A stretch of 64,000 nucleotides of DNA from Glaucostegus cemiculus. Its lineage: Eukaryota. Below are positions 4,573-62,149 of this stretch, piece after piece. Position 1 is the stretch's first letter. Every line of letters begins with the position of its first letter. The DNA is taken from assembly GCA_976551045.1 (NCBI GenBank), contig CDPCPM010000063.1, forward strand, positions 18,786,001 through 18,850,000. Reading direction: 5' to 3'. The notes below the pieces were generated by a model. The model worked only from the letters and a program-made list of their open reading frames with translations. It was not told the DNA's origin and ran no database searches. The translations under genes and the position numbers were made by a program.

Positions 4573-4719
4573 CAAACTGGAAGAGTCTGTGGTCTGATGG
4601 AAGTATATAGAATGAAGGGAGGCAAAGATATGGTAGGCACAAGAAATTCTGCAGATGCAGGAATCTGGAGGAATACACTAAAAGTGATGGAGGAACTCAG
4701 CAGGTCAGGCAGCATCCAT

Positions 4720-5025
4720 GGTGGCCAAGGGTGGAAATATCAAATACTAGAGGGCATGGGGTTAAGGTGAGAAGGCGAAAGTTTAAAGGAGATGTACAAG
4801 GCAAGTTTTTCACAGAGTGGTGGGTGTCTGGAAAGCACTGCCTGGGGAATTGGGGGATGCAGATATGAAAGCAACATTTAAGAAGCATTTAGACCTAAAC
4901 AGACAGGGAATTAAGGAACACAGACTGTGTACGGGCAGATGGGATTAGTTAGACTGGCATCATGGTCGGTGCTGACTTTGTGGGCCAACGGACCTGTTCC
5001 AGTGTCTTACTGTTCTGTGTTCTAC
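4720..5025 (+). mobile_element. CR1 3' end, preceded by a Penelope-type terminal fragment (4638-4720)
   Basis: actagagggcatggg.ttaaggtgaga...tactgttctgtgttcta; upstream is cacaagaaattctgcagatgc...ggaggaactcagcaggtcaggcagcatc. Confidence 0.75.
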
Positions 5026-7146: not shown

Positions 7147-8449
7147 TGTCATGATTCTGAGTACTGGCCCTTGATTTGGCTCCTTGGATGCCTCATTGTA
7201 CAGCACATGGATTCCATGCTGGACTGATTGCATAATGACACAACCCTCTCATCCCAGGGACTAACCTGCTGAACTTCCTCTGGACTGCATCCAATATTAC
7301 CATATCCTTTTCTTAAGGGGACCAAAACTGTACTCCGTTTTCCAGCATTCAATAGCCTGTCCAACTGTAACAAATCCTCCCTATCTTTAAACTCCAACCC
7401 CTTCAAATGCTCACTCGGGTACCAACCCCCTCTCTTCTCCATCCACGAAGAAGAGATTGCCGTGCCCTCAGTTCAAGACCATCTCCACCGTTGCCACAAG
7501 GTCTGGGAGGACACACGTGCAGTCCTGCTCCATACCGCTGATCGCAACTGGAGATTTGCTGATCATCGGTGGGTTCCCGCACCTGTGTACCAGCCTGGGC
7601 AGAAGGTTTGGCTCTCGGCTAAGGACATTCCCCTCAAGGATGAGCCCAAGAAACTAGCTCCTCGCTTCTTGGGACCTTTTGAAATTGAGCGGATCATTAA
7701 ACCCACCACAGTCCGGCTCAAATTGCCTAAGACCCTGAGGATACATCCCACTTTCCACGTGTCTCAGGTGAAGCCAGTGGCTAGCAGTCCATTGTGCCCT
7801 CCAGCCAAGCCCACTCCGCCCCCCCAGATTGTTGATGACTACTCAGCGTACACCGTCCGGTGTTTATTGGATGTACGCCGCCGGGGTAGGGGCCTGCAGT
7901 ACTTGGTCTATTGGGAGGGATACGGTCCAAAGGAACATTCCTGGGTTCCTCGCTCCTTTATTTTGGATCCCTCCCTACTTTGGGACTTCCATCAGAACCA
8001 TTCAGACAAGCCTGGCGGGTCGCCGAGAGGCTCCCATTGCGGGGAGGCTACTGTCATGATTCTGAGTACTGGCCCTTGATTTGGTTCCTTGGATGCCTCG
8101 TTGTACAGCACATGGATTCCATGCTGGACTGATTGCATAATGACACACACCTGAGCCCCCTCAGGGGCCTAGCATAAGTACCTGGGTTTCTCTAGCACTA
8201 GTTGCCAGAGGATTGGTCAACCTTTGGCTCCTTGCTGCTTAGAGTGGTCTACTCTAGAACAGTCCTGTGTTCTCTAGTCCTGCTTGAAGATTCAGTTTGT
8301 GTTGGGATTACTACTCAGATCTCCAAGGCAAGATTTCCTTCCAGTTGCTGCCTGTGTTTGGCCCTGAGGAAGTACCCTGACTCCAGTCTTGTACCAGTGT
8401 GCTGCATTTGGGTTCTCTGTGAGCTTGCTCTTCAATTGACATTGTGACA
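7147..8449 (+). mobile_element. Internally deleted Ty3/Gypsy chromovirus-type LTR retrotransposon
   Basis: 5-bp TSD CTTTG at 7142-7146 and 8450-8454. Complete 3' LTR 8052-8449 (TGTCA...TGACA) preceded by the PPT ggggaggctac. Truncated 5' LTR 7147-7242 has 2 mismatches in 96 bp against the 3' LTR. Confidence 0.95.
7406..8079 (+). pseudogene. Gypsy integrase C-terminus with GPY/F module and chromodomain (open frame, 5' truncated)
   Basis: Encodes [43 protein letters not shown] and the chromodomain [40 protein letters not shown]. Confidence 0.92.
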
Positions 8450-9450: not shown

Positions 9451-9741
9451 TCTATTACTCTGGACACTTCTGAGCAACAATCTGCAAGAAGGATATTATA
9501 CCACTGGGAAGAGTGCAGACAAGAATACAGACTGTCTGTCTGTGCTGGGGTTATTTACTACAGAGCAAGAGAATGAAGGGAGATTTTGCTGAGTTGTATA
9601 AATGGTGATAAGGTTAAACAGAATAAACAAAAGGGATCAACTTCCTCCAGCAGAGAAGTCAGTAAATATGGAGCATAGAATTAATTTTGTTGGTAGAAGG
9701 AATAGAAGAGATTTGAGGAAAACATATTTCACTGAACAAGG

Positions 9742-10008
9742 AGACACAAGAAATTCTGCAGATGCTGGAAATAATCTGGAGCAATACACAAAAATTGCTG
9801 GAGGAACTCAGCAGGTCAGGCAGCATCTATGGAGGGAAATAAACAGTCGACGTTTCTGGCTGAGACCCTTCATCAGGACTGGAAAGGAAGGGGGCAGAAG
9901 CCAAATTAAGAAGGTGGGGGCAGGGCTTCTTCCCTCTTCCTTTCCAGTCCTGATGAAGGGTCCTGATGACCTGCTGAAATCCTCCAGCACATTTTGTGCA
10001 TTGTTTCA
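9742..10008. mobile_element. Fold-back element made of Penelope-type (MER6-like) termini
   Basis: acccttcatcaggactggaaaggaag (9865-9890) is inverted as cttcctttccagtcctgatgaagggt (9936-9961). The outer arms gctggaggaactcagcaggtca / tgacctgctgaaatcctccagc also pair. Confidence 0.75.
9844..9881 (-). ncRNA. Minimal type-I hammerhead ribozyme motif (Penelope-associated)
   Basis: The minus strand reads CAGUC CUGAUGA A GGGUCUCAGCCA GAAA CGUC GACUG: helix I CAGUC/GACUG, intact core, palindromic ACGU in place of helix III, GUC cleavage triplet, and one mismatch at the base of helix II. Confidence 0.7.
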
Positions 10009-11509
10009 CTGAATAAGTGATGAGGGTCTGAAACTCATAGCCAGAAATCCTCACTCCCATTCAAAAAGTATGTGAATAAGCAAGAAGAGCTGTCAAATTA
10101 AGAGCTGTGGATCAAGAACTTTGAAGAGGGATTAAACTAAAGTCCATTTTTGCCCTGCATGAAAACGGTATGGCTTCCTGCTGTGTTGAAGCTTTTTGTG
10201 ATTTTAACTCCAAGACTCAGTCATTAAACCTTTCAATCTCCCCATGTGCACCTTCTCCCTTAAAATGCTCATTAAAATCTACCAACTTGTAGTTTGCTGT
10301 TCTAATATTTCCTTCAGTAGCAATGTCAAATTTAATGCATTTTACTACATTAAATGCCAGTTAATGTTAATAGGTGTTTGAATGCCATTTCTAGTGATCT
10401 TGTAGCGAATTCCAGGCTCAGGCAGCACCAGGTACTCTCCAACAAGAGTAGATTTACACCCTAAATAGGAACAAAAACTAAGCCAAGTACAAAACCCCTT
10501 CAGCCAGTATCCCATTGCCTGTTTTCTGCCTTGTGGTAAAAGTAGGGTTAAAGCTGAAGAGATTGAACTCCTTAGGGGCATGGAATATTGTCCATATTTA
10601 ATATTGGTTCTATGCAAAATTCTCATAATAGTTGATAATAGCAAGGTTGTGCGTTATATTATCTTTAAGAGACAATTTATCATGCAGAAAGTGGTAATTA
10701 CACACGTTTGTCAGAGCAGTAAGAGACATTTAAGAAGAGGATAGTGGGGGTTCTGAACAAATATGTCCCCATTAAGGGTAAAAGGAGGAGCTTCCATTCC
10801 AGAGGAAAATGAACACTGCCTCTTTGTGCCTCCCTGGGCTCACACAACTAATTCTTAATTTTGGTGGGGATTACTTTTGGCAACTAAAGCAAATTGAAAG
10901 GGGAAAAAAAATGTCTTCACTATAAATACTTGTAAAGCAATAATCGTAGTAAAGACCCTGGGAGAAAGGGCCAGCGTGCTCTCTAACAAGGGAACAGTGT
11001 TTCAAACTAGCATGAGGTAAAAAAGAGGAATAAGCTTTGCCAAGGCAACACTGGCTGTTCATTAACTAAAACACAAAGATCTGTTGTTTGAGGGAAGTAG
11101 TATCTTATTCAATATTCAAATATCTAAGCATATGACTTATGTAAACACATGATTAATTAAAGACCATAGGGAAAATTGTTCCAATGCAATAGTGTTCTGC
11201 CTCATTGTGACTCGTAAATTAAATTGTACGTGTGATTATTTATTTATCATAATTATTTATTAAGTTTACTAATATCAATATCTTTGAATTTTTAGAGAAG
11301 TAGGTCATGTGTGTCCTACTCAACTAGCCGCACAAATTACAGCCACCTCATAAAGTACAACCTACTCTCAAACGTCAGCAAGTGTTTACAAAGTATTGCG
11401 GCTGTGCTATCAAACTGCATTTACTCACCAATAATCTGCTCACTGATACTTATTTTGGCTTTTGCCAGAACTGCTCAGCTCCAGACCACATCACAGCGTT
11501 GGTCCACAT

Positions 11510-12519: not shown

Positions 12520-14410
12520 CATTGGGAAATTCTGCCTGATTAATTTGATTAAGCTTTTTAGAGAAGTAACAAAATATATTGATGAGGGCAGTGCAGTTGA
12601 TGTAATCTGCAACACCTGTCTATTCACCTTTTCCTTTCCTACCATCCAGGGACCCACACAGTCTTTCCAGGTGAAACAGTGATTCGCTTACACTTCTTCC
12701 ACTCTAGTGTACAGCATTTGGTGTTCACAATGTAGCTTCCTCTACACTGGAGAAACCAAATACAGACTGGGTGACCATTTTGCGGGGACCTGCACTCACT
12801 CTGCAGGTCCCTGCAAAATGCACTCATCCTGAGCTTCCAGTTGACTGGCATTTTAATGCATCATCCCAGTCCCACTCAGACCTCTCTGTCCATGACATTC
12901 TGCCCTGTTTCAATGAGACCCAACATAAACTTGAGGAACAACAACTTATTTTTCATCTGGGCACCTTGCAGCCTGCGGAATTCAATATTGATTTCTACAA
13001 CTTCAGATAATTTGCCCTTTCCTTCTGTTTGTATCGGGACTGGCAATTAGTGCTTGCTATTCCTCACTTCTTTTTTTCTTGAAATTATATATTCTGGTTT
13101 GCTTGGCATGTCCCAGTTGGCCAGACTCCACCCAGACTACAGAGCATTAGCAACGCATCACACCGACAATGAGCTTAACTGTTCATCGAATGGCTGTCCA
13201 TGATTTCACCTGATGACTGACAATGCCTTTGCTCCGCCCATTGTTCCCTCTACCTTCTCTGTTACTTAGACGAACTTGCTTTTTCTCCTCCTCAGTTCTG
13301 ATGAAGGATCTTTGACCTGAAACATTAACTGGTTTCTGTTTCCACAGATGCTTAACTGACTGAGTTTATCCAGCATTTCTGTTTTTGTTTTGGACTTCAG
13401 TAAGGCCTTTGACAAGGTCCTGAGTGGAAGACTGATCCAAAAGGTTAAAGCCTATGGGATCCAATGCGAGTTTGGAAATTGCATCCAAAGTTGGCTTGGT
13501 AATGGTAGACAATGTGTGACGGCGAAGGGTTGCTTTTTAATTGGAAACCTGTATACTGCAGGGATCATTTCTGGATCCCTTGCAGTTTCTCATACACATT
13601 AATGATGTGGATATGAATGTAGGAGGTATGGTTCATAAATTTGCAGAAGACACAAAAATCAGTGGTGGTGTTGACAGGGAAAAGATAGTAAGGCCATCAA
13701 ATGATATTGATCAGCTAGTAAGGTCATCCTGATAAGTGCAAGATGATGCATTTTGGGAGATCTAATAATGGTGGGACAAACGCCATGAAATGTGGAGCCC
13801 TAGTACAGAAGGATTTTGGTGTACAAGTCCATAGATGCCTAAAAATGGCAGCACAGGTAGATAAGGTAATGAAGAAGACATACAGAGCACTGGCCTTCAT
13901 TAGCTGGGTGCATAGAATACATGACCATGGAGCTCACCGTACAACTTTAGTAAAGTTTGATTAAGCCACAGATGGAGTATTATATGTATTTTTGATCACC
14001 ACATTATAGAAAGGACATGAATGCCCTGGGGAGAGTGCAGAGGAGATTTACCAAGATGTTGCCTGGGATGAATCATGAGAAGGGACTGGATAGGCTGGGT
14101 TTGTTTTCCTTGTAGTGGATGAGGCTGAGGGGCGAATCTGGTAGAGGTCTACAAAATTGTGAGGCATAGATAGGATGGATAGTGAGAAAACTTTCTCCAT
14201 AACAGAAGAGAAGTCTAAAACCAGAAGACATAGATTTAAGATGAGGAGGAAGAGGGTCAGAGGGAATATGAGAAAAAAATGCCCCCCCTATAAAAGGTTG
14301 AAAACTGAAATGCACTGCCTGAGAAGGTGGTGGAGGCAACAGGTACTCTCACACCTTTTATAGGTGTATCTTGATGATAAATTAAATCACCAAGGCATAG
14401 AAGTGTATGA
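12520..14410 (+). mobile_element. CR1 LINE interrupted by a Penelope-like insertion
   Basis: CLINLIKLFREVTKYIDEGSAVDVI stops at about 12608 and resumes at 13390 with DFSKAFDKV, KFAEDTK and MHFGRSN. Confidence 0.88.
12609..13389 (+). mobile_element. Penelope-like element 3' part (GIY-YIG region remnant and terminus)
   Basis: Encodes TIQGPTQSFQV, PELPV..HFN...H and HKLEEQQLIFHLGTLQP..FNIDF.NFR. The terminus is cagttctgatgaagg...cctgaaac...cagatgct. Confidence 0.8.
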
Positions 14411-14990: not shown

Positions 14991-16404
14991 GTTCAAGGAG
15001 AGGGCTTGATGCATACATAAAGAAGAAATGAATAACAGAAAACAGGAAAAGAGTGGAAAGATGTAATTATGTTACAAGAGCTTGTTATAGCTTGTATAGA
15101 CCAGCTACGATGGATGGCCTCTCGTCTGAAGTGGACTCTGTGCATTTCTGTAACTATAAATGAATCTCACAGAAATTTTACTCCAAAATATCCTTTCAAT
15201 GGGAATGAATGAAAATTCCTCCTCTATTCTCACTTTGAAATAATATATTGGCTGAGCAAAAAGCACCCTACAGTCACTCATCATCTTGCCTGTAAGGGGT
15301 CTTGGTGAAGTTGCTATTAAGGTGCATAACAATGGCTCCCAAAGTTAGTTATTGGATAAAAATACCAAGCCCGTGCACCATTAAACCATGCAGACCTAAA
15401 TCACACGCAGTCCTGCTGAGTTAGTTGATTTTGTCCAGTGAAAATTGTGTCAGAATTGGCCTCAATCCTGTGAACGAATTAAAAGAGGTTTCAATCCCAA
15501 TTAGTACCAAAATTAGAAAGAGTGTGTATTATATTAGAGGTTGGCATTTTATGTATTGGTGTGATATGCGCACACTTCAAACGGTGTCAACACTGCCAGC
15601 TTCAGTTCAAACATATACAATATCCTCTTTGGCAACGCTTCGGAAAGTTTTAACTGACTGAGGAACTTCATTCTTACAAGTTACTCTTACTAGTTAACAA
15701 GGAAGAAAGGATAGAAAATACTGCAAAAATAGTAAATGTAATCCAATCAAAGAACAACGTGTTTTAGAACAGCATATTTGTTTTGTTGATTATCAAGTCC
15801 TATCAGAAAAATGGATAGTCCAAATGGACTTAATTAAACTGAAAATTACATCAACAGTAATTGCTTTATTCGCAGTGGTTCTGGCTGAGCTCTTTCACTA
15901 ACTCTATGAGATCAGTTAGTGCCAAGTCTAACTGTATGGTTGATAGAAGAAAAAATCTTCTGCAGCAGGTTTAACAGAAATGCAGTCAACCGATAGAGGG
16001 ATTTGCTCTCAACTTCTGTTCTTGGACATACCAGTTAATGTAGACTGCTATAATTGTGGAAGTAATTGAGTAACATGTGGCCCCAGGATAATATTGAAGG
16101 AATGATGAATGATAAATGAGAAAAAGCAGAAAATAATATGCAGCCGGGTACGAGTGTATCTTTACAGAAATGTAAGCAAAGATCATAGTCTTTCAGTATG
16201 GAAACCAAGCTTTATTGCTTTTTCAGTGTTTTGTTTTCACTTGTGTTTTCATCAGCCCTCCTCATTAATCCTCTGAATTAAACATTATTGGTCCATAACA
16301 ATCAAAGACTCCAATTCTCAGAAAACGGATCAATTCTCACTGTGTAAAACTGTCATGAAAAATATGTCTATCATTAATTACAAAAGAAATTGCTACTGAT
16401 ATAA

Positions 16405-16730
16405 AAACAGAAAGTGTTGGAAACAGTCAGCGGGTCAGGCAGCATCTGTAGAAAGAGAAGCAGGGGTAATGTTTCAGGTTCATGACTCTTCATCAGAACA
16501 AGGGAGGAGAGGAACAAGTTAGTATAGGTGGAGGGAAGGTGGGGGAAGGGGATGGGTGGAAAAGGGGGGATTTCCCCAATAAATTGAGACAGGAATAATG
16601 TGGCAGTTAAAGGGCAGTTAAAATCAGATTAAGAGAGACACAGGAGACTGCATGTGTTGGAATCTGGAGCAAAAAAACAAACTGCTGGAGGAATGCAGCA
16701 GGTCAGGCAACATCTGTGGATGCAAAGCCT
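16405..16730 (-). mobile_element. Penelope-type terminal repeats
   Basis: Two copies of the ...ggtcaggcagcatctgt... motif and a degraded hammerhead-like core (tcttcatcagaac). Confidence 0.65.
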
Positions 16731-17290: not shown

Positions 17291-18151
17291 TGCAATAGAG
17301 GCAAGAAATGAACATTGTAGCATAAGTTCCAGTGCTAAGAACATCACTGTGAGACCACAAAAAAATGTATATACTGTTTTTGAAATCACACGTTAGGGAC
17401 CTCCTTCTATCTCTGTCTTTACATGGGCCACTCTAAGGCTTGAAAATACAACTGTAAGTCTTTTATTCTGTGTTGTAGAAGATTTTTATTGATTTTTTTT
17501 TCTCAAAGCGTATTTTTACTGAAGCAGGTGTTCTTCTAACGCAGATAAAGCACCAGAGTACAAAACCATCACACTGCTACACTCTTCCTGCTTTAGTAGC
17601 CTGCATTCTTGCAGTCTTGGCAGGCCTCAGTGTTTTTTTGTATTTGTTTAAGTACTGCAAAGAAAACCCCTTATTATTAATCAGCTACATGATTCATTTG
17701 TTCCACCTCTGAGCAGTGCCGGATGAAGGTGCCATGTTCCCCTCACTGTAAAATGAAGCTTGGTGTGACTTACGCAGCTGGAGATATTTAGCCCCAGTTA
17801 CTCTTTAATAATCAGTGGCCACGCTTCTGAGCTTCCCCGTGCTTGGAGCAAAGAATATAAAATGCAACCAAAAGATGCAAATTGTTGGCGATACACAGCA
17901 GGTCAGTCAGCACTTGTAGAGGTCAACTTTTCAGGCGTAGACAAGTTCTCAGAGCAGAGCTCAGCATGCGAAGTCTGATCTTTACACCATTGTATAAAGG
18001 GAGGTACATGAAAGGAACTGAAATAATAAATGTACTTTAAACAGTCAGTGATTATTTCCTGATAAAAATAAAGTCCATTTGTTAATCCTGATTCCCTTTT
18101 CCAGGATGCAGCCTCCACAAGCACCAGGGTGAAAATACTTTTCCTTATTTA

Positions 18152-25149: not shown

Positions 25150-25335
25150 ATGCCAGGCTTCGGAAGTATTGCTTGTCGGCACTTGAGACCGAAGACGGCC
25201 AGGAAGTCTGTTCTGCTCTGCCTCCTCCTATGGATCGCCTGCTGGTTTCTTGTAAACATGTCAGTCTTCATCCAGAAGAATATCTTCGCCGAATATTGCA
25301 CCGACCAGAAAAGTAAAGGCATTCTCGGTCGACTG
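25150..25335 (+). CDS. DIPK1C: DIPK1C/FAM69C-like divergent protein kinase, coding exon 1 (basic N-tail and type II transmembrane anchor)
   Basis: ATG at 25150 gives MPGFGSIACRHLRPKTARKSVLLCLLLWIACWFLVNMSVFIQKNIFAEYCTDQKSKGILGRL, ending at donor CTG|gtaag (intron starts 25336). EYCTDQKSKGIL resembles DIPK1C ERCTDEKSRRIL as recalled. 62 codons, phase 0. Confidence 0.88.
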
Positions 25336-31911: not shown

Positions 31912-32607
31912 TGTCATGACTATCAGCAGGGAGTGCTGACAGGAGATCTGTGCGAGGATTTGTGTGTCACACAGACAATGGTTTATAAACGATGCCTGTA
32001 CTATGATAAAGGGAAAAAAGTTATACAGGCTGATTGGAATGGGCGGCCAATAATTCTGAAATCCAAACTAGAAGACTTCTTAAGCTATGACAGCCTTTAT
32101 CTTCTGGATGAACAAGAAAGCAAATCCATTCCTGATATTGACATCCTGGTCTTTACTGCACTGGAAATCAAACACTCCTTGGGTCTGGAAGTGAAGAATG
32201 TTACAGTACCACAACTATGGACCAAGCACTTAAAAGACAGAAGGGGCTCTTTCTCAAGAGCAGAGCTAGCCAGTATGTGGTCCCTGTTGCAGCAGGAGGA
32301 ATATGTATTTTTCCAGCTACTGCAGGATCTCAGTAAACATGTTCTCAAAATGGTGGGCTCCTGCGGTCATTTCTATGCTGTTGAGTACCTCACAGCTGGT
32401 CATACTTGGCATCACAACCTTTTTTCCCTGGAGGAGCTGGGCACTCGCTCCTGGCGAGGCAGCAGCAGCAAGGAATTGTGGCAGTCAGCTAATGGGATTG
32501 CACTTAGCTTCCTTGATCTAGCTAGGCACTTTGAGAATGACTTTTCCCACCAGCTTCATCTCTGTGACATCAAGCCAGAGAACTTTGCCATCAGGGCTGA
32601 TCTAACG
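31912..32607 (+). CDS. DIPK1C: DIPK1C-like exon 2 (Cys-rich N-lobe and catalytic loop)
   Basis: Acceptor ttgttgcag|TGT and donor ACG|gtaaat. Encodes CHDYQQGVLTGDLCEDLC, GKKVIQADWNGRPIILKSK (ATP-site Lys), LLQQEEY, GSCGHFYAVEYL and HLCDIKPENFAIR, all FAM69 family signatures. 232 codons. Confidence 0.96.
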
Positions 32608-33498
32608 GTAAATCGTGCGCGTGGGATGAGAAAATAGCAGCATTGAAAGGACAGGTTCTTGGTTCCCCTGTTTATGTGCATTTAAAAATGTTACATATTT
32701 GAGGTGCATGGTTGTCTTTTTCAAGTGGTGTAAGGCACTCCAAATTAACCTTCCAAATTAACATGCAAAGGATTTCAATATATACTAGAAGTCTACACTA
32801 GCTTCAGTAGCTAAAATGGGAAAAGGGAAGCAAAATTACAGACACTGAGCCTTCAGAAAAAAATAATTGATTGCATCAGCTCTGAAATATCCTTTCTCTT
32901 TTCAGATGTTCAGATACTGGCTGAGTGCTTCCAATATACTCCCATCACACACCAGTGAGGAAAACAGCATAAGTAGAATATAAGCCTCATCAAATTTCTG
33001 AAAGTAGCTCCACATTGTTCAATAAGTTTTTATGAAGCCATGAGATAGATTTCTGCTAGGTAAGAATATTAAGAGATATGGGACTAAGGCAGGGAAATGG
33101 GAGTTGCAGATCAGTGAATATCCAAAAGAATGACAGAATCAACTCAATGGGTTGAATAACCCACTCTTTCCTTTGTTACTGGATTTCAAATGCACATGCG
33201 TGCACGCGCAAGCACACACACACAAAAAAAATAAGAGCAGGAGTAGGTCATGTGCCTCCTCAAGCCTGCCCTGTAATTCAATATAATCATGGCTGATCTA
33301 CTCCAGGTCTCATCTCCTTTTCTATGCTAAATACATTGCCTGAGAGATCAATGGGAACAGACTCAAAGTTAAATTTCAGAAGTAAATTAGATAGAGATTT
33401 CAGACCATGCCTGACTGTTGTCTCGGACTTGCTGCATGTGGGCATCAGCTGCTTCATTTGCTGAGGAGTTGCTTTACCCTTTTTATTAACAACTGTTA

Positions 33499-38415: not shown

Positions 38416-38604
<189 letters not shown>

Positions 38605-47580: not shown

Positions 47581-47676
47581 GTAATGTCTTGGCTTTGCTT
47601 TTCTGTTCTAGCAGTGAGTGCATCATTATAAAACATTTGTTTAAACTTGACTAATATATTTATTTATTTCTTGCAG

Positions 47677-47880
47677 GTCATTTGTGATAAAATATTCCGT
47701 CCTTTATTCTCACCACAGCTGAGTGAACTCAGGGTGTACCATCCATTGCAATCCCAGCTGTATAAAGCAGTACAGAGGTGCGCTGAGCTTTCCAACCATG
47801 GGAGTGTAGATAAGAAGATGACAGAGGGCACATTCTCTGAACTGTACAATTTGTTTAAGGCTGGTCAGAGAGAACAATGA
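47677..47880 (+). CDS. DIPK1C: DIPK1C-like exon 4 (terminal coding exon)
   Basis: Acceptor tttcttgcag|GTC. Encodes VICDKIFRPLFS...LQSQLYKAVQRC..., with TGA at 47878-47880. Total protein is 62+232+55+67 = 416 aa. Confidence 0.93.
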   Translation, partial: VICDKIFRPLFSPQLSELRVYHPLQSQLYKAVQRCAELSNHGSVDKKMTEGTFSELYNLFKAGQREQ

Positions 47881-59351: not shown

Positions 59352-59500
59352 GTGACACAAGTTACTGCAGATGCTAGTAATCTGGAGCAACACACCAAAA
59401 GCTGTAGGAACTCAGTAGGAACTCTTGACCCGAAACGTTGACTGTCCATTTCCCTCTATAGATGCTGCCTGACCCATTGAGTTCTTAAAGTTTTTTGTGA
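59352..59500. mobile_element. Short palindromic Penelope-terminus (MER6-like) element
   Basis: acacaagttactgcagatgct...ggaactcag joined to gacccgaaacgttgactg...gatgctgcctgacc. Confidence 0.7.
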
Positions 59501-62149
59501 GAGGCGGTGGAATTGGACTCCCTGGTCCAAGGTGACTCAGTCCTTTTACATAACATATTGATGATGCCATTGAGATTTTCAATTTTAACCTGAATTCTGT
59601 AATGGACCATCAGTGATGGCTTCCCACCTCAAAACCTGCCAGGATCAGGAGCTGGGGCATGAGTTACCTCAAGGTTTTTTTATAAGGTTCCTTGTGGAAC
59701 AGATGATACAAGATTGCCTCTCTATTCCTTGTACGAAACATTGGGCCTTCCCCATTCCTTGACCAACCAGGATTTGTTTCACAGGGTAACCTCTTGCCAT
59801 CTAATGTTTATGGCTGGAAGCCCTTTTCTGCTACTTAGCTATCCCTTTTGAAGTTATCAATAGGCACAGGCTAAAATTTATCCAATATACTTGTCCGCTG
59901 CTACTGCTGGACATTAAACTGGGGAACTCTATAGAATAAGAATAGAATAACTCTTTAGATGCATAGAATCTCAATAATTTCAGAAGAGGGGAAGAGGGAG
60001 AATGGTAAGATGAGAAAAGAAAGGAAGGAAAAGTTAACACACAGTAGTTCCCCTCTCCAAAATCCCACATTTGGGAAAATCCTGATTGTTGAGTAATCCT
60101 ATCTTAGTGTAATATTTCCAATCAAAATGATATAATATATCTTAGTTTTGACTTGTAAAAGTATAAATATTCTAGTCACCATCTGCAGCAAACTTCAAAA
60201 TAGTCTTTAAGAATCCATCACAATAGCAGCTGTGTTCAATGAAATCATTAAACTAAAATGCACTTCATCACATCGACTGCCTGAAGGCTGATATTTGAAT
60301 AACTTTTCCACTGTCTTTGATTAAATGTATAAGCCGTTTTAGTTTCCAATTGGGTGACTTTTGTATGGTGGATCAGTACTCCAATATTTTAAAGAACAGC
60401 TTTCAGTTCCTTGGTTTAAAATACCTAGGAGACAATATACGGTATTATAGACTAAAAATCACTTCAGCAGGCATATAAATAGTTCCCAAAGAGTAGACAA
60501 GCATTTTAAACTTTTCCTGTTGATGTAAAATTGTTACCAGAATATTGAAAACTTGCTTCTGCCAGTATTATGTGCAGAAAAATATTGTGGACAATCAATT
60601 GAATCTAAAAGTAGGGGAACTTGATCCTGAGTTATTGTAGAGGAATGCTGCTCTTGAAGGTAGACCAGAGTAGATTGTTCAGGATGAAAATTTAATTATT
60701 CATCAGAAAGGCAAAACATTGTTCAAGTAACAGTGCCAATGGCTGAAGAAAACATTAAATCTTGTGTACATCTTCATTTCCATATTCATGGGCAGAGTCC
60801 AGAGGGACGAAGGTTTCAGGCACATGGGGCACCAACGTCTGCATATACCCTTCCAAGTTCCATAGCATCCTGATTTGGAACTGTCCTCCCGATCCTTGTG
60901 GAACTCTATCCAACAGCACTGCAGGAGCACGTTCACCAGGAGGAAGGTGACAGTTCAAGAAGGTCACTCACCACCACCTTTTTCAGCAAATAGGGATGGG
61001 CAATAAATTCCGGTCTTGTCAGCAAAGCCCAAATACTGAACAAAATGAAAAGAAGGTATTTTCTTCCTCCTTTTCTATCAATAATTCTTTTTAACTATTC
61101 AACAACAGCTGTCTTGGTTTAAATGCAGTTCAATTAAAATCCAAAGCCCTTTATTAGAAGCTCTATTTGTAATTAGTGACCCAATTAGCAAAAACTACAT
61201 TACACAGAGAGAAATAAAAAAAACCTTTCTTCTGAAGCCTGGATCTGGAGTCGCAGCTTGATCGAGATATCATGGTTGTTCAGGAATTTCGAATTCCGTC
61301 AGAAAAACAAGCTACTCTGCTATCTTAGACATTTTGGAACTGCTTTATAACCAATACTGAATATAAAATCAAAGCCAAACAGTTGGATACAAGTCCCATG
61401 TTTGCCATTTACAACCATCTTAACTGAACTCAGCTTGGAAATATTTCACCCAGCTGCTGGTGGTTGTGATTTCTCACTCTCAAATTTTCAGTGTTTGTGT
61501 ACACATCAGTGCTCATTTTTATCTAAAGAAATGGTGTAATATGGGTGCTACTGATTAAGCCACATGTTACCTCTGAATACTTCTCTCCCAGTTTTCATTT
61601 TCATTGCTGTGAAAGTTAAATGGCCCCATTCGCTATTGAGATGAATGGTGTTAGAAATAGGTGTCACATTGAATCAATATTCCTTCAAACTGGTTTATGA
61701 GGAAATTATAGGATGGAATAGTGTAGTGTCTACATAGTGCTACTTATATAAACATTCACACAAATAACTGGAAAAGTCTGTCACTCCCTCCCCTTGACAA
61801 GTAACATTTGGATAAATTTTCCAAATGAATTCAGTAACAAGTAAACCAAGAATGTGATTTTACAATGTGATTACTTGGCATTATTTCCACATAGCGCAGA
61901 GCCCCTGCTTACAATTTCCTGCCATTACTACATAATTGAACACACAATGAACACATCTGCAATACAAAATATAAGTTGTAGCTCCTCCATCATACTGCCC
62001 TTTCTTTTGCGAAACTCGTATACAATGCAAAGTGTCATCTTGGGAAGCTGTAGAATAGACCAAATATAGTATTTCAACTTCAATTCAGCAAGTTCACAGA
62101 TTTAAAAACAGGGGAGTATTCAAGTATTAAACCAAACAACAGCCTAGCT

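Follow-up and report, generated by a model that had tools for sequence, protein, structure and literature searches.

The 38-nt motif at positions 9844-9881 of the window (the whole 64,000-nucleotide stretch of Glaucostegus cemiculus DNA that was analysed) is very probably a mutated minimal hammerhead ribozyme from the pLTR, or end repeat, of a Penelope-like element with an endonuclease (EN+ PLE), inserted once as a 263-bp head-to-head stub and likely inert. Its kind, the minimal hammerhead of PLE end repeats, is already known, and the motif, though real, is an unremarkable remnant. As a single copy among some half a million decayed ends it is of little importance; taken together, the family amounts to a large fossil record of PLE insertion. 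The stub would have arisen when a PLE reverse transcriptase (RT) was primed at a nicked target site, started copying inside the RNA, at the tail, and halted after ~180 nt, with the second arm made by fold-back or twin priming, and the hammerhead of the parent element would need to form a dimer or be assisted by a protein to cut after GUC, as in other PLEs.

The hammerhead motif and its insertion

The minus strand over 9844-9881 reads exactly as the sequence-only reading had laid it out, with helix I, the catalytic core, a palindromic ACGU and a GUC cleavage site (Table 1). Several features of minimal PLE hammerheads were present, namely CUGANGA, GAAA, U16.1-H17, the extra nucleotide between 9 and 10.1, a palindromic 15.2-16.2 (the CG of the ACGU) and a helix I of 5 bp, where at least 3 bp are required, and the motif agrees with the consensus given for PLE minimal hammerheads in the supplement of PMC4209133. 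In 1.26 Mb of real sequence the strict minimal motif was found at 6 sites, whereas none of the 5 Markov controls contained it, so the motif is not a product of chance. A search with Rfam covariance models, which the sequence-only reading had proposed as a check, matched the motif to no hammerhead family at E <= 10; it returned only generic miRNA-hairpin matches below the gathering score, which arise because of the fold-back.

The G10.1-C11.1 pair that closes helix II strongly affects the rate of hammerhead cleavage. The mismatch claimed there (CCA for CCC) is real, since 9857 carries A where the subfamily carries C, and the resulting G-A mismatch at 9868/9857 deprives the 9844-9881 copy of this closing pair, so that it ranks as a decayed copy rather than a working ribozyme. 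The subfamily consensus closes helix II with G10.1-C11.1, and position 11.1 was C in 26, T in 7, A in 4 and G in 1 of 38 subfamily copies, most of them chosen by similarity to the 9844-9881 copy. Across the genome, the full hammerhead pattern with C11.1 was found in 506 copies, all more intact than the 9844-9881 copy. Another 368 otherwise intact copies lacked C11.1, with A in 2 among the first 100 listed, and A11.1 as a subfamily trait was ruled out on that count. The closing pair is highly conserved in PLE hammerheads (PMC4209133) and is kept in miniribozymes, and the account of minizymes without helix II in PMC544870 allows them some, generally lower, activity (PMC544870).

The whole unit is a PLE stub of 263 bp (9741-10003) between 14-bp target duplications, and an equally good duplication match was found in 0 of 2000 random scans. 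Over 177 aligned bases its left arm shows 8 substitutions relative to the subfamily consensus, as well as a 4-nt insertion, and it is 89% identical to an endonuclease-bearing copy, L112; a genome search with the repeat gave 40 scored matches, the full-length non-self ones being 91-94% identical. In the right arm ~40-45 nt are missing after 9962, and with them GAAA, the cleavage site and the second (3') half of helix II. The existence of an inverted arm had thus been seen correctly in the sequence-only reading; its extent (9936-9961) had not, as the arm spans about 9922-10003 and 9936-9962 is its perfectly matching stretch. The central inversion junction occurs once in the 2.85-Gb genome (allowing <=2 mismatches), and so does the right-arm deletion junction (allowing <=1 mismatch).

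Table 1. Coordinates of the hammerhead, its insertion and neighbouring features in the window
Feature	Position	Strand	Basis or remark
Minimal type I hammerhead motif	9844..9881	-	Sequence; fits published PLE minimal hammerhead consensus
Helix I, 5 bp	9881-9877 paired with 9848-9844	-	Sequence
A2.4 of helix I, where many other copies begin; candidate parent transcription start	9880	-	Copy 5' ends
Core CUGAUGA	9876-9870	-	Sequence
Extra A between 9 and 10.1	9869	-	Sequence
Helix II region, 12 nt	9868-9857	-	Sequence
C-to-A change at position 11.1, CpG site	9857	-	Breaks G10.1-C11.1 closing pair
GAAA	9856-9853	-	Sequence
C17	9849	-	Predicted cut between 9849 and 9848
Left arm, 5'-truncated PLE 3' end (pLTR) with ~35-nt tail, 180 nt	9741..9920	-	Subfamily alignment
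Right arm, pLTR copy in inverted orientation, more truncated, no tail, 82 nt	9922..10003	+	Alignment
Target-site duplication, left, 14 bp	9727..9740	+	1 mismatch to right copy
Target-site duplication, right, 14 bp	10004..10017	+	1 mismatch to left copy
Decayed Penelope GIY-YIG fragment, then old-subfamily pLTR	12608-13007 and 13241-13399	+	
Further pLTR fragments	4634-4724, 16377-16550, 16635-16727, 17880-17955, 59352-59505		
DIPK1C (FAM69C), four coding exons, apparently intact	25150-25335, 31912-32610, 38416-38583, 47671-47877	+	Protein comparison

Judged from its surroundings, the stub copy looks intergenic, lying ~15 kb upstream of the start codon of DIPK1C, whose large exon is 88-92% identical to ray and shark proteins, as befits a cartilaginous fish. 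Among the 147 frames of 62 aa or more that were scanned in the first 32 kb, DIPK1C supplied the only host coding domain; short or non-coding exons could escape such a search. In the same neighbourhood, 7273-8076 (plus strand) holds a chromodomain LTR retrotransposon remnant with SH3_Tf2-1 and Chromo matches, around which stand direct repeats of 101 nt (7147-7247 and 8052-8152) with 96% identity.

The parent element and its copies

Genomic copies of the repeat share a common 3' end and have variable 5' ends, and a GIY-YIG motif lies ~700 nt upstream of the pLTR in two of them (L010 and L030). L112, a longer copy from the subfamily of 9741-9920, has RT-thumb and GIY-YIG frames directly upstream of its pLTR that are 54% identical over 397 aa to the 525-aa RT and GIY-YIG frame of L113; the latter matches 80 proteins, including shark and ray ones, many of which carry PF00078, PF26215 or PF01541. 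An endonuclease query returned 56,834 first-look candidates in the genome, and most of the 52 endonuclease loci examined had a pLTR a few hundred bases downstream. RVT_1 matched decayed PLE frames at E = 0.011 and 0.056, below the cut-off, and the RT evidence leaves out the strong RVT_1 match of L121, whose PLE membership is not established. The marks of an EN+ PLE were found, namely RT followed by GIY-YIG upstream of the pLTR, an inverted 5'-truncated copy and a one-sided tail; no full-length intact element was seen among the copies examined. The sequence-only reading was right that the repeat is abundant and that its minimal type I hammerhead derives from Penelope. In L053 and its relatives, a Cys-rich C-x-C-xx-C-xx-C stretch between RT and endonuclease, the mark of the Neptune clade, points from sequence to Neptune or Nematis, the linker being common to both.

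Two side observations concern coding sequence. An open frame at L056:3322-3633 (minus strand), which adjoins a PLE endonuclease fragment, presumably resembles an exon of a CHD-type chromatin remodeler. In addition, a protein named DIPK1C isoform X2 of Hypanus sabinus (P0005) consists almost wholly of Penelope RT-endonuclease sequence and is probably a mis-annotation or an exonized element.

We sampled 121 regions totalling 1,263,838 bp, comprising the window, the flank on either side of it and 118 further stretches, which were taken at round coordinates from contigs known from earlier match lists. These regions held 259 pLTR fragments (~205 per Mb), from which ~580,000 fragments are estimated genome-wide by extrapolation. 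Of the 158 sampled copies that span the motif, 21 have retained the core pattern and only 2 are intact throughout; by this measure the 9844-9881 copy is better kept than most. Within subfamilies, substitutions were equally frequent in core (60/563, 10.7%) and flank (190/1722, 11.0%; p = 0.88), and the same held for the old group (126/751 vs 318/2053; p = 0.41). Copies decay neutrally, and selection on genomic hammerhead copies was ruled out by these comparisons.

Of the two signs of conservation expected by the sequence-only reading, helix pairing is present in the consensus; a core more conserved than its flanks was not found among genomic copies. The majority core is kept across four profile groups, except position 9 in one mixed group, which has C in 25 and A in 17 copies. 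Most copies of one subfamily that still spread, including L044:1331-1368 and L059:2153-2290, carry such a C9 core (CUGAUGC-A). The 2.1-1.1 pair is C-G in 44 of 65 copies of the three younger groups and U-A in 54 of 67 copies of the oldest one, a swap that represents a single compensatory event at the level of subfamilies; the two outermost pairs of helix I are not maintained from one subfamily to the next. A hammerhead with the U-A version also stands in the window, at 13293-13331 within the old-subfamily pLTR. Over the 69 gap-free copies of the 158, 75.8% of cells were paired, vs 14.8-43.6% in slid controls, and the covariation score, which rests on the single C-G to U-A change, was equalled in 82 of 500 shuffles. 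Separately, a 30-nt block at 9801-9830 (minus strand) and its equivalents, 46-75 nt downstream of C3, is conserved between subfamilies like the ribozyme (25-28 of 30 positions) and may be a candidate protein-binding signal or ORF start.

The 5' ends of copies show a pile-up at the leading edge of the ribozyme. With profiles reaching 120 nt upstream, starts were tallied for the younger copies that have their 5' end between -100 and +39 (n = 73); in 30 of the 73 the start fell in the 10 nt just upstream of C3 (p ~ 5e-16 vs uniform) and in 4 near the cut site, while the 9741-9920 copy runs 40 nt further upstream than A2.4. A TATA-like box lies ~30 nt above the initiator-like A of helix I in two subfamily consensuses, and is weak in the subfamily of the 9741-9920 copy. 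Of the genomic occurrences of the 18-mer that starts at this A, 7,178 have C in front, 434 G, 401 T and 270 A, and the upstream pLTR sequence was missing at 29/30 G, 14/15 A, 3/15 T and 3/30 C loci examined. By estimate, G precedes 56% (49-62%) of non-C starts vs a background of 26%, and at a single locus the G sits between the target duplication and the element.

The pile-up, the TATA-like box and the excess of G suggest, as far as sequence can tell, that the templates were uncut and capped. They can be joined into one reading, tentative and somewhat short of probable, in which the hammerhead marks the RNA 5' end, the stubs are cDNAs of capped uncut RNA and the ribozyme is a decapping switch. 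Under it, transcription would begin at the helix I A, 30 nt below the pLTR TATA-like box; RT would initiate internally at the tail and copy the cap G into the stub cDNA; and a 32-nt decapping would take RNA out of the template pool, rather than a cut releasing monomers. If true, this start-site reading bears on what PLE hammerheads do in vivo, and we found no paper on a PLE hammerhead as a transcription start with a TATA box, subscription journals and repeat databases lying outside the search. Besides cap copying, these observations could stem from microhomology with the inverted arm or the target, from RT stalling at the pyrimidine tract or from splicing. We ranked lower a splice-acceptor explanation of the pile-up, in which the pyrimidine tract and the CAG inside helix I serve as acceptor. 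It has a parallel in a D. virilis intron; however, the upstream sequences share no common exon, the inverted arm precedes 11 of 30 G-start copies, and 7 of 40 short copies have a target duplication no more than 6 nt from the start, the only range scanned.

Activity of the copy and origin of the fold-back

The 9844-9881 copy is likely unable to cut. The isolated 38-mer folded no better than its shuffles (z = -0.6), while 9840-9970 formed a strong hairpin whichever strand was folded (z = -9.3). When the complete insertion was folded as a minus-strand transcript (-134.5 kcal/mol), helices I and II had pair probabilities of 0.0, and in the left arm alone the hammerhead helices reached a pairing probability of ~2% (0.02). 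Transcribed from either strand, the insertion would by these models form a long hairpin. No tandem partner on the same strand is at hand either, as the right arm lies on the other strand and lacks GAAA, and the other copies in the window are distant and broken. According to PMC4209133, a monomeric minimal PLE hammerhead does not cleave and dimers cleave weakly.

The copy might nevertheless have weak real activity with a second copy in trans or with an element protein, which we consider unlikely. It keeps every core nucleotide, the full 5-bp helix I, the GUC triplet and the palindromic ACGU; a strand-swapped dimer can be drawn at -13.3 kcal/mol, and the PLE hammerhead of the anole cleaves only with protein, in a system where insertion does not require cleavage (PMC11167929). 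Against this, the dimer model lies 7.7 kcal/mol above the best co-fold, and the closest copy on the same strand that retains part of the core is itself decayed and lies at a distance of 6.6 kb. By analogy with the active minizymes of PMC544870, and given the intact core and helix I, residual cleavage in an engineered dimer is conceivable.

As for the origin of the fold-back, 68 of the 259 sampled copies stood in head-to-head pairs, 4 were tail-to-tail and 4 in tandem. For the 34 head-to-head pairs, a tail was present on one arm only in 29, a target duplication was seen at 5, and the junctions were different in all 34. The same inverted layout has been described for PLE insertions, with self-priming proposed, in PMC8557442 and PMC3846280, and the paired layout, the differing junctions and this published layout together identify the fold-back as an insertion by-product. 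A second head-to-head pair in the window stands at 59352-59505.

The sequence-only reading had regarded the fold-back as a ribozyme-bearing non-autonomous element. An abundant, ribozyme-bearing repeat was confirmed; a separate fold-back element was not, since the unit is the truncated end of an RT/endonuclease PLE with a unique junction. That the unit is mobile in the manner of a MITE or a retrozyme is very improbable. Such an element would agree with the single target duplication that bounds the whole unit, with the abundance of very short stubs and with the non-autonomous PLE-derived retrozymes, one chondrichthyan included, that bioRxiv 10.64898/2026.07.22.740005 describes. However, the central junction and the deletion junction are each single in 2.85 Gb, no junction is shared among the 34 sampled pairs, as it would be in a MITE-like family, and close tandem copies, which as units define retrozymes, number 4 of 259. 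The unique junction of 9741-10003 and the 34 differing junctions thus show that this is not a mobile non-autonomous fold-back family, and the mobile reading is largely refuted.

Least credible of all is the idea that the inverted arm acts as a functional antisense off-switch on an otherwise active ribozyme. The arm would, as had been claimed, pair with the core, by prediction with its 5' half, and helix probabilities fall to 0.0 in the whole-insertion fold. But the helices are only ~2% probable even without the arm, and the copy stands as a monomer whose closing pair is broken. Arms of this sort occur in a quarter of all copies, and their junctions vary. No gene was found on the insertion, the nearest coding exon found starting ~15 kb away on the other strand. 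An arm like this is what PLE insertion ordinarily leaves behind.

Comparison with known systems

Minimal type I hammerheads were described in the pLTRs of metazoan PLEs by Cervera and De la Peña 2014 (PMC4209133), whose systems include Xena, Poseidon and Neptune of fishes, coelacanth and Xenopus. We found no relevant paper on Penelope hammerheads in sharks, in a search outside of which lay subscription journals and repeat databases. Our motif resembles these ribozymes in its type I topology, CUGANGA with an extra nucleotide, GAAA, palindromic 15.2-16.2 and short helix I, and its family consensus shares their G-C-closed helix II. The genomic setting is also alike: the motif sits downstream of an RT-EN ORF, most copies are truncated and solitary, and second copies occur in the opposite orientation. 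In contrast, the host here is a cartilaginous fish, absent from the one supplement file of PMC4209133 that was searched, helix II has only 4 bp, the copy number is far higher, and the 9844-9881 copy has G10.1-A11.1.

The extra A between A9 and G10.1 is also seen in the CChMVd plus-strand hammerhead (PMC3705267). The latter, however, is a viroid ribozyme with full helices, and the likeness implies no relationship; the viroid analogy drawn earlier is unneeded, as an extra nucleotide at 9/10.1 is a general trait of PLE hammerheads (PMC4209133).

The stub shares several traits with the inverted-pLTR insertions of EN+ PLEs described in PMC8557442 and PMC3846280: its 5' end abuts a 5'-truncated copy in reverse orientation, a tail of 30-40 bp is found on one side only, and the target is duplicated. 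It differs from the insertions reported there in having no ORF, arms of less than 200 bp and an internally deleted right arm. The Poseidon element PAc of Anolis carolinensis (PMC11167929) offers a further parallel, in that internal RT start sites account for the tail and unprocessed RNA is the main template, which fits the few starts at the cut site here. Unlike our element, which is known from sequence and has a Neptune/Nematis-type linker, PAc belongs to the Penelope/Poseidon clade and was tested in vitro. Finally, non-LTR retrozymes (bioRxiv 10.64898/2026.07.22.740005) are likewise PLE-derived non-coding units with type I hammerheads; as characterized in that preprint, they form tandem arrays with a complete ribozyme per unit, whereas the insertion analysed here is a single head-to-head stub and does not pass for a retrozyme.
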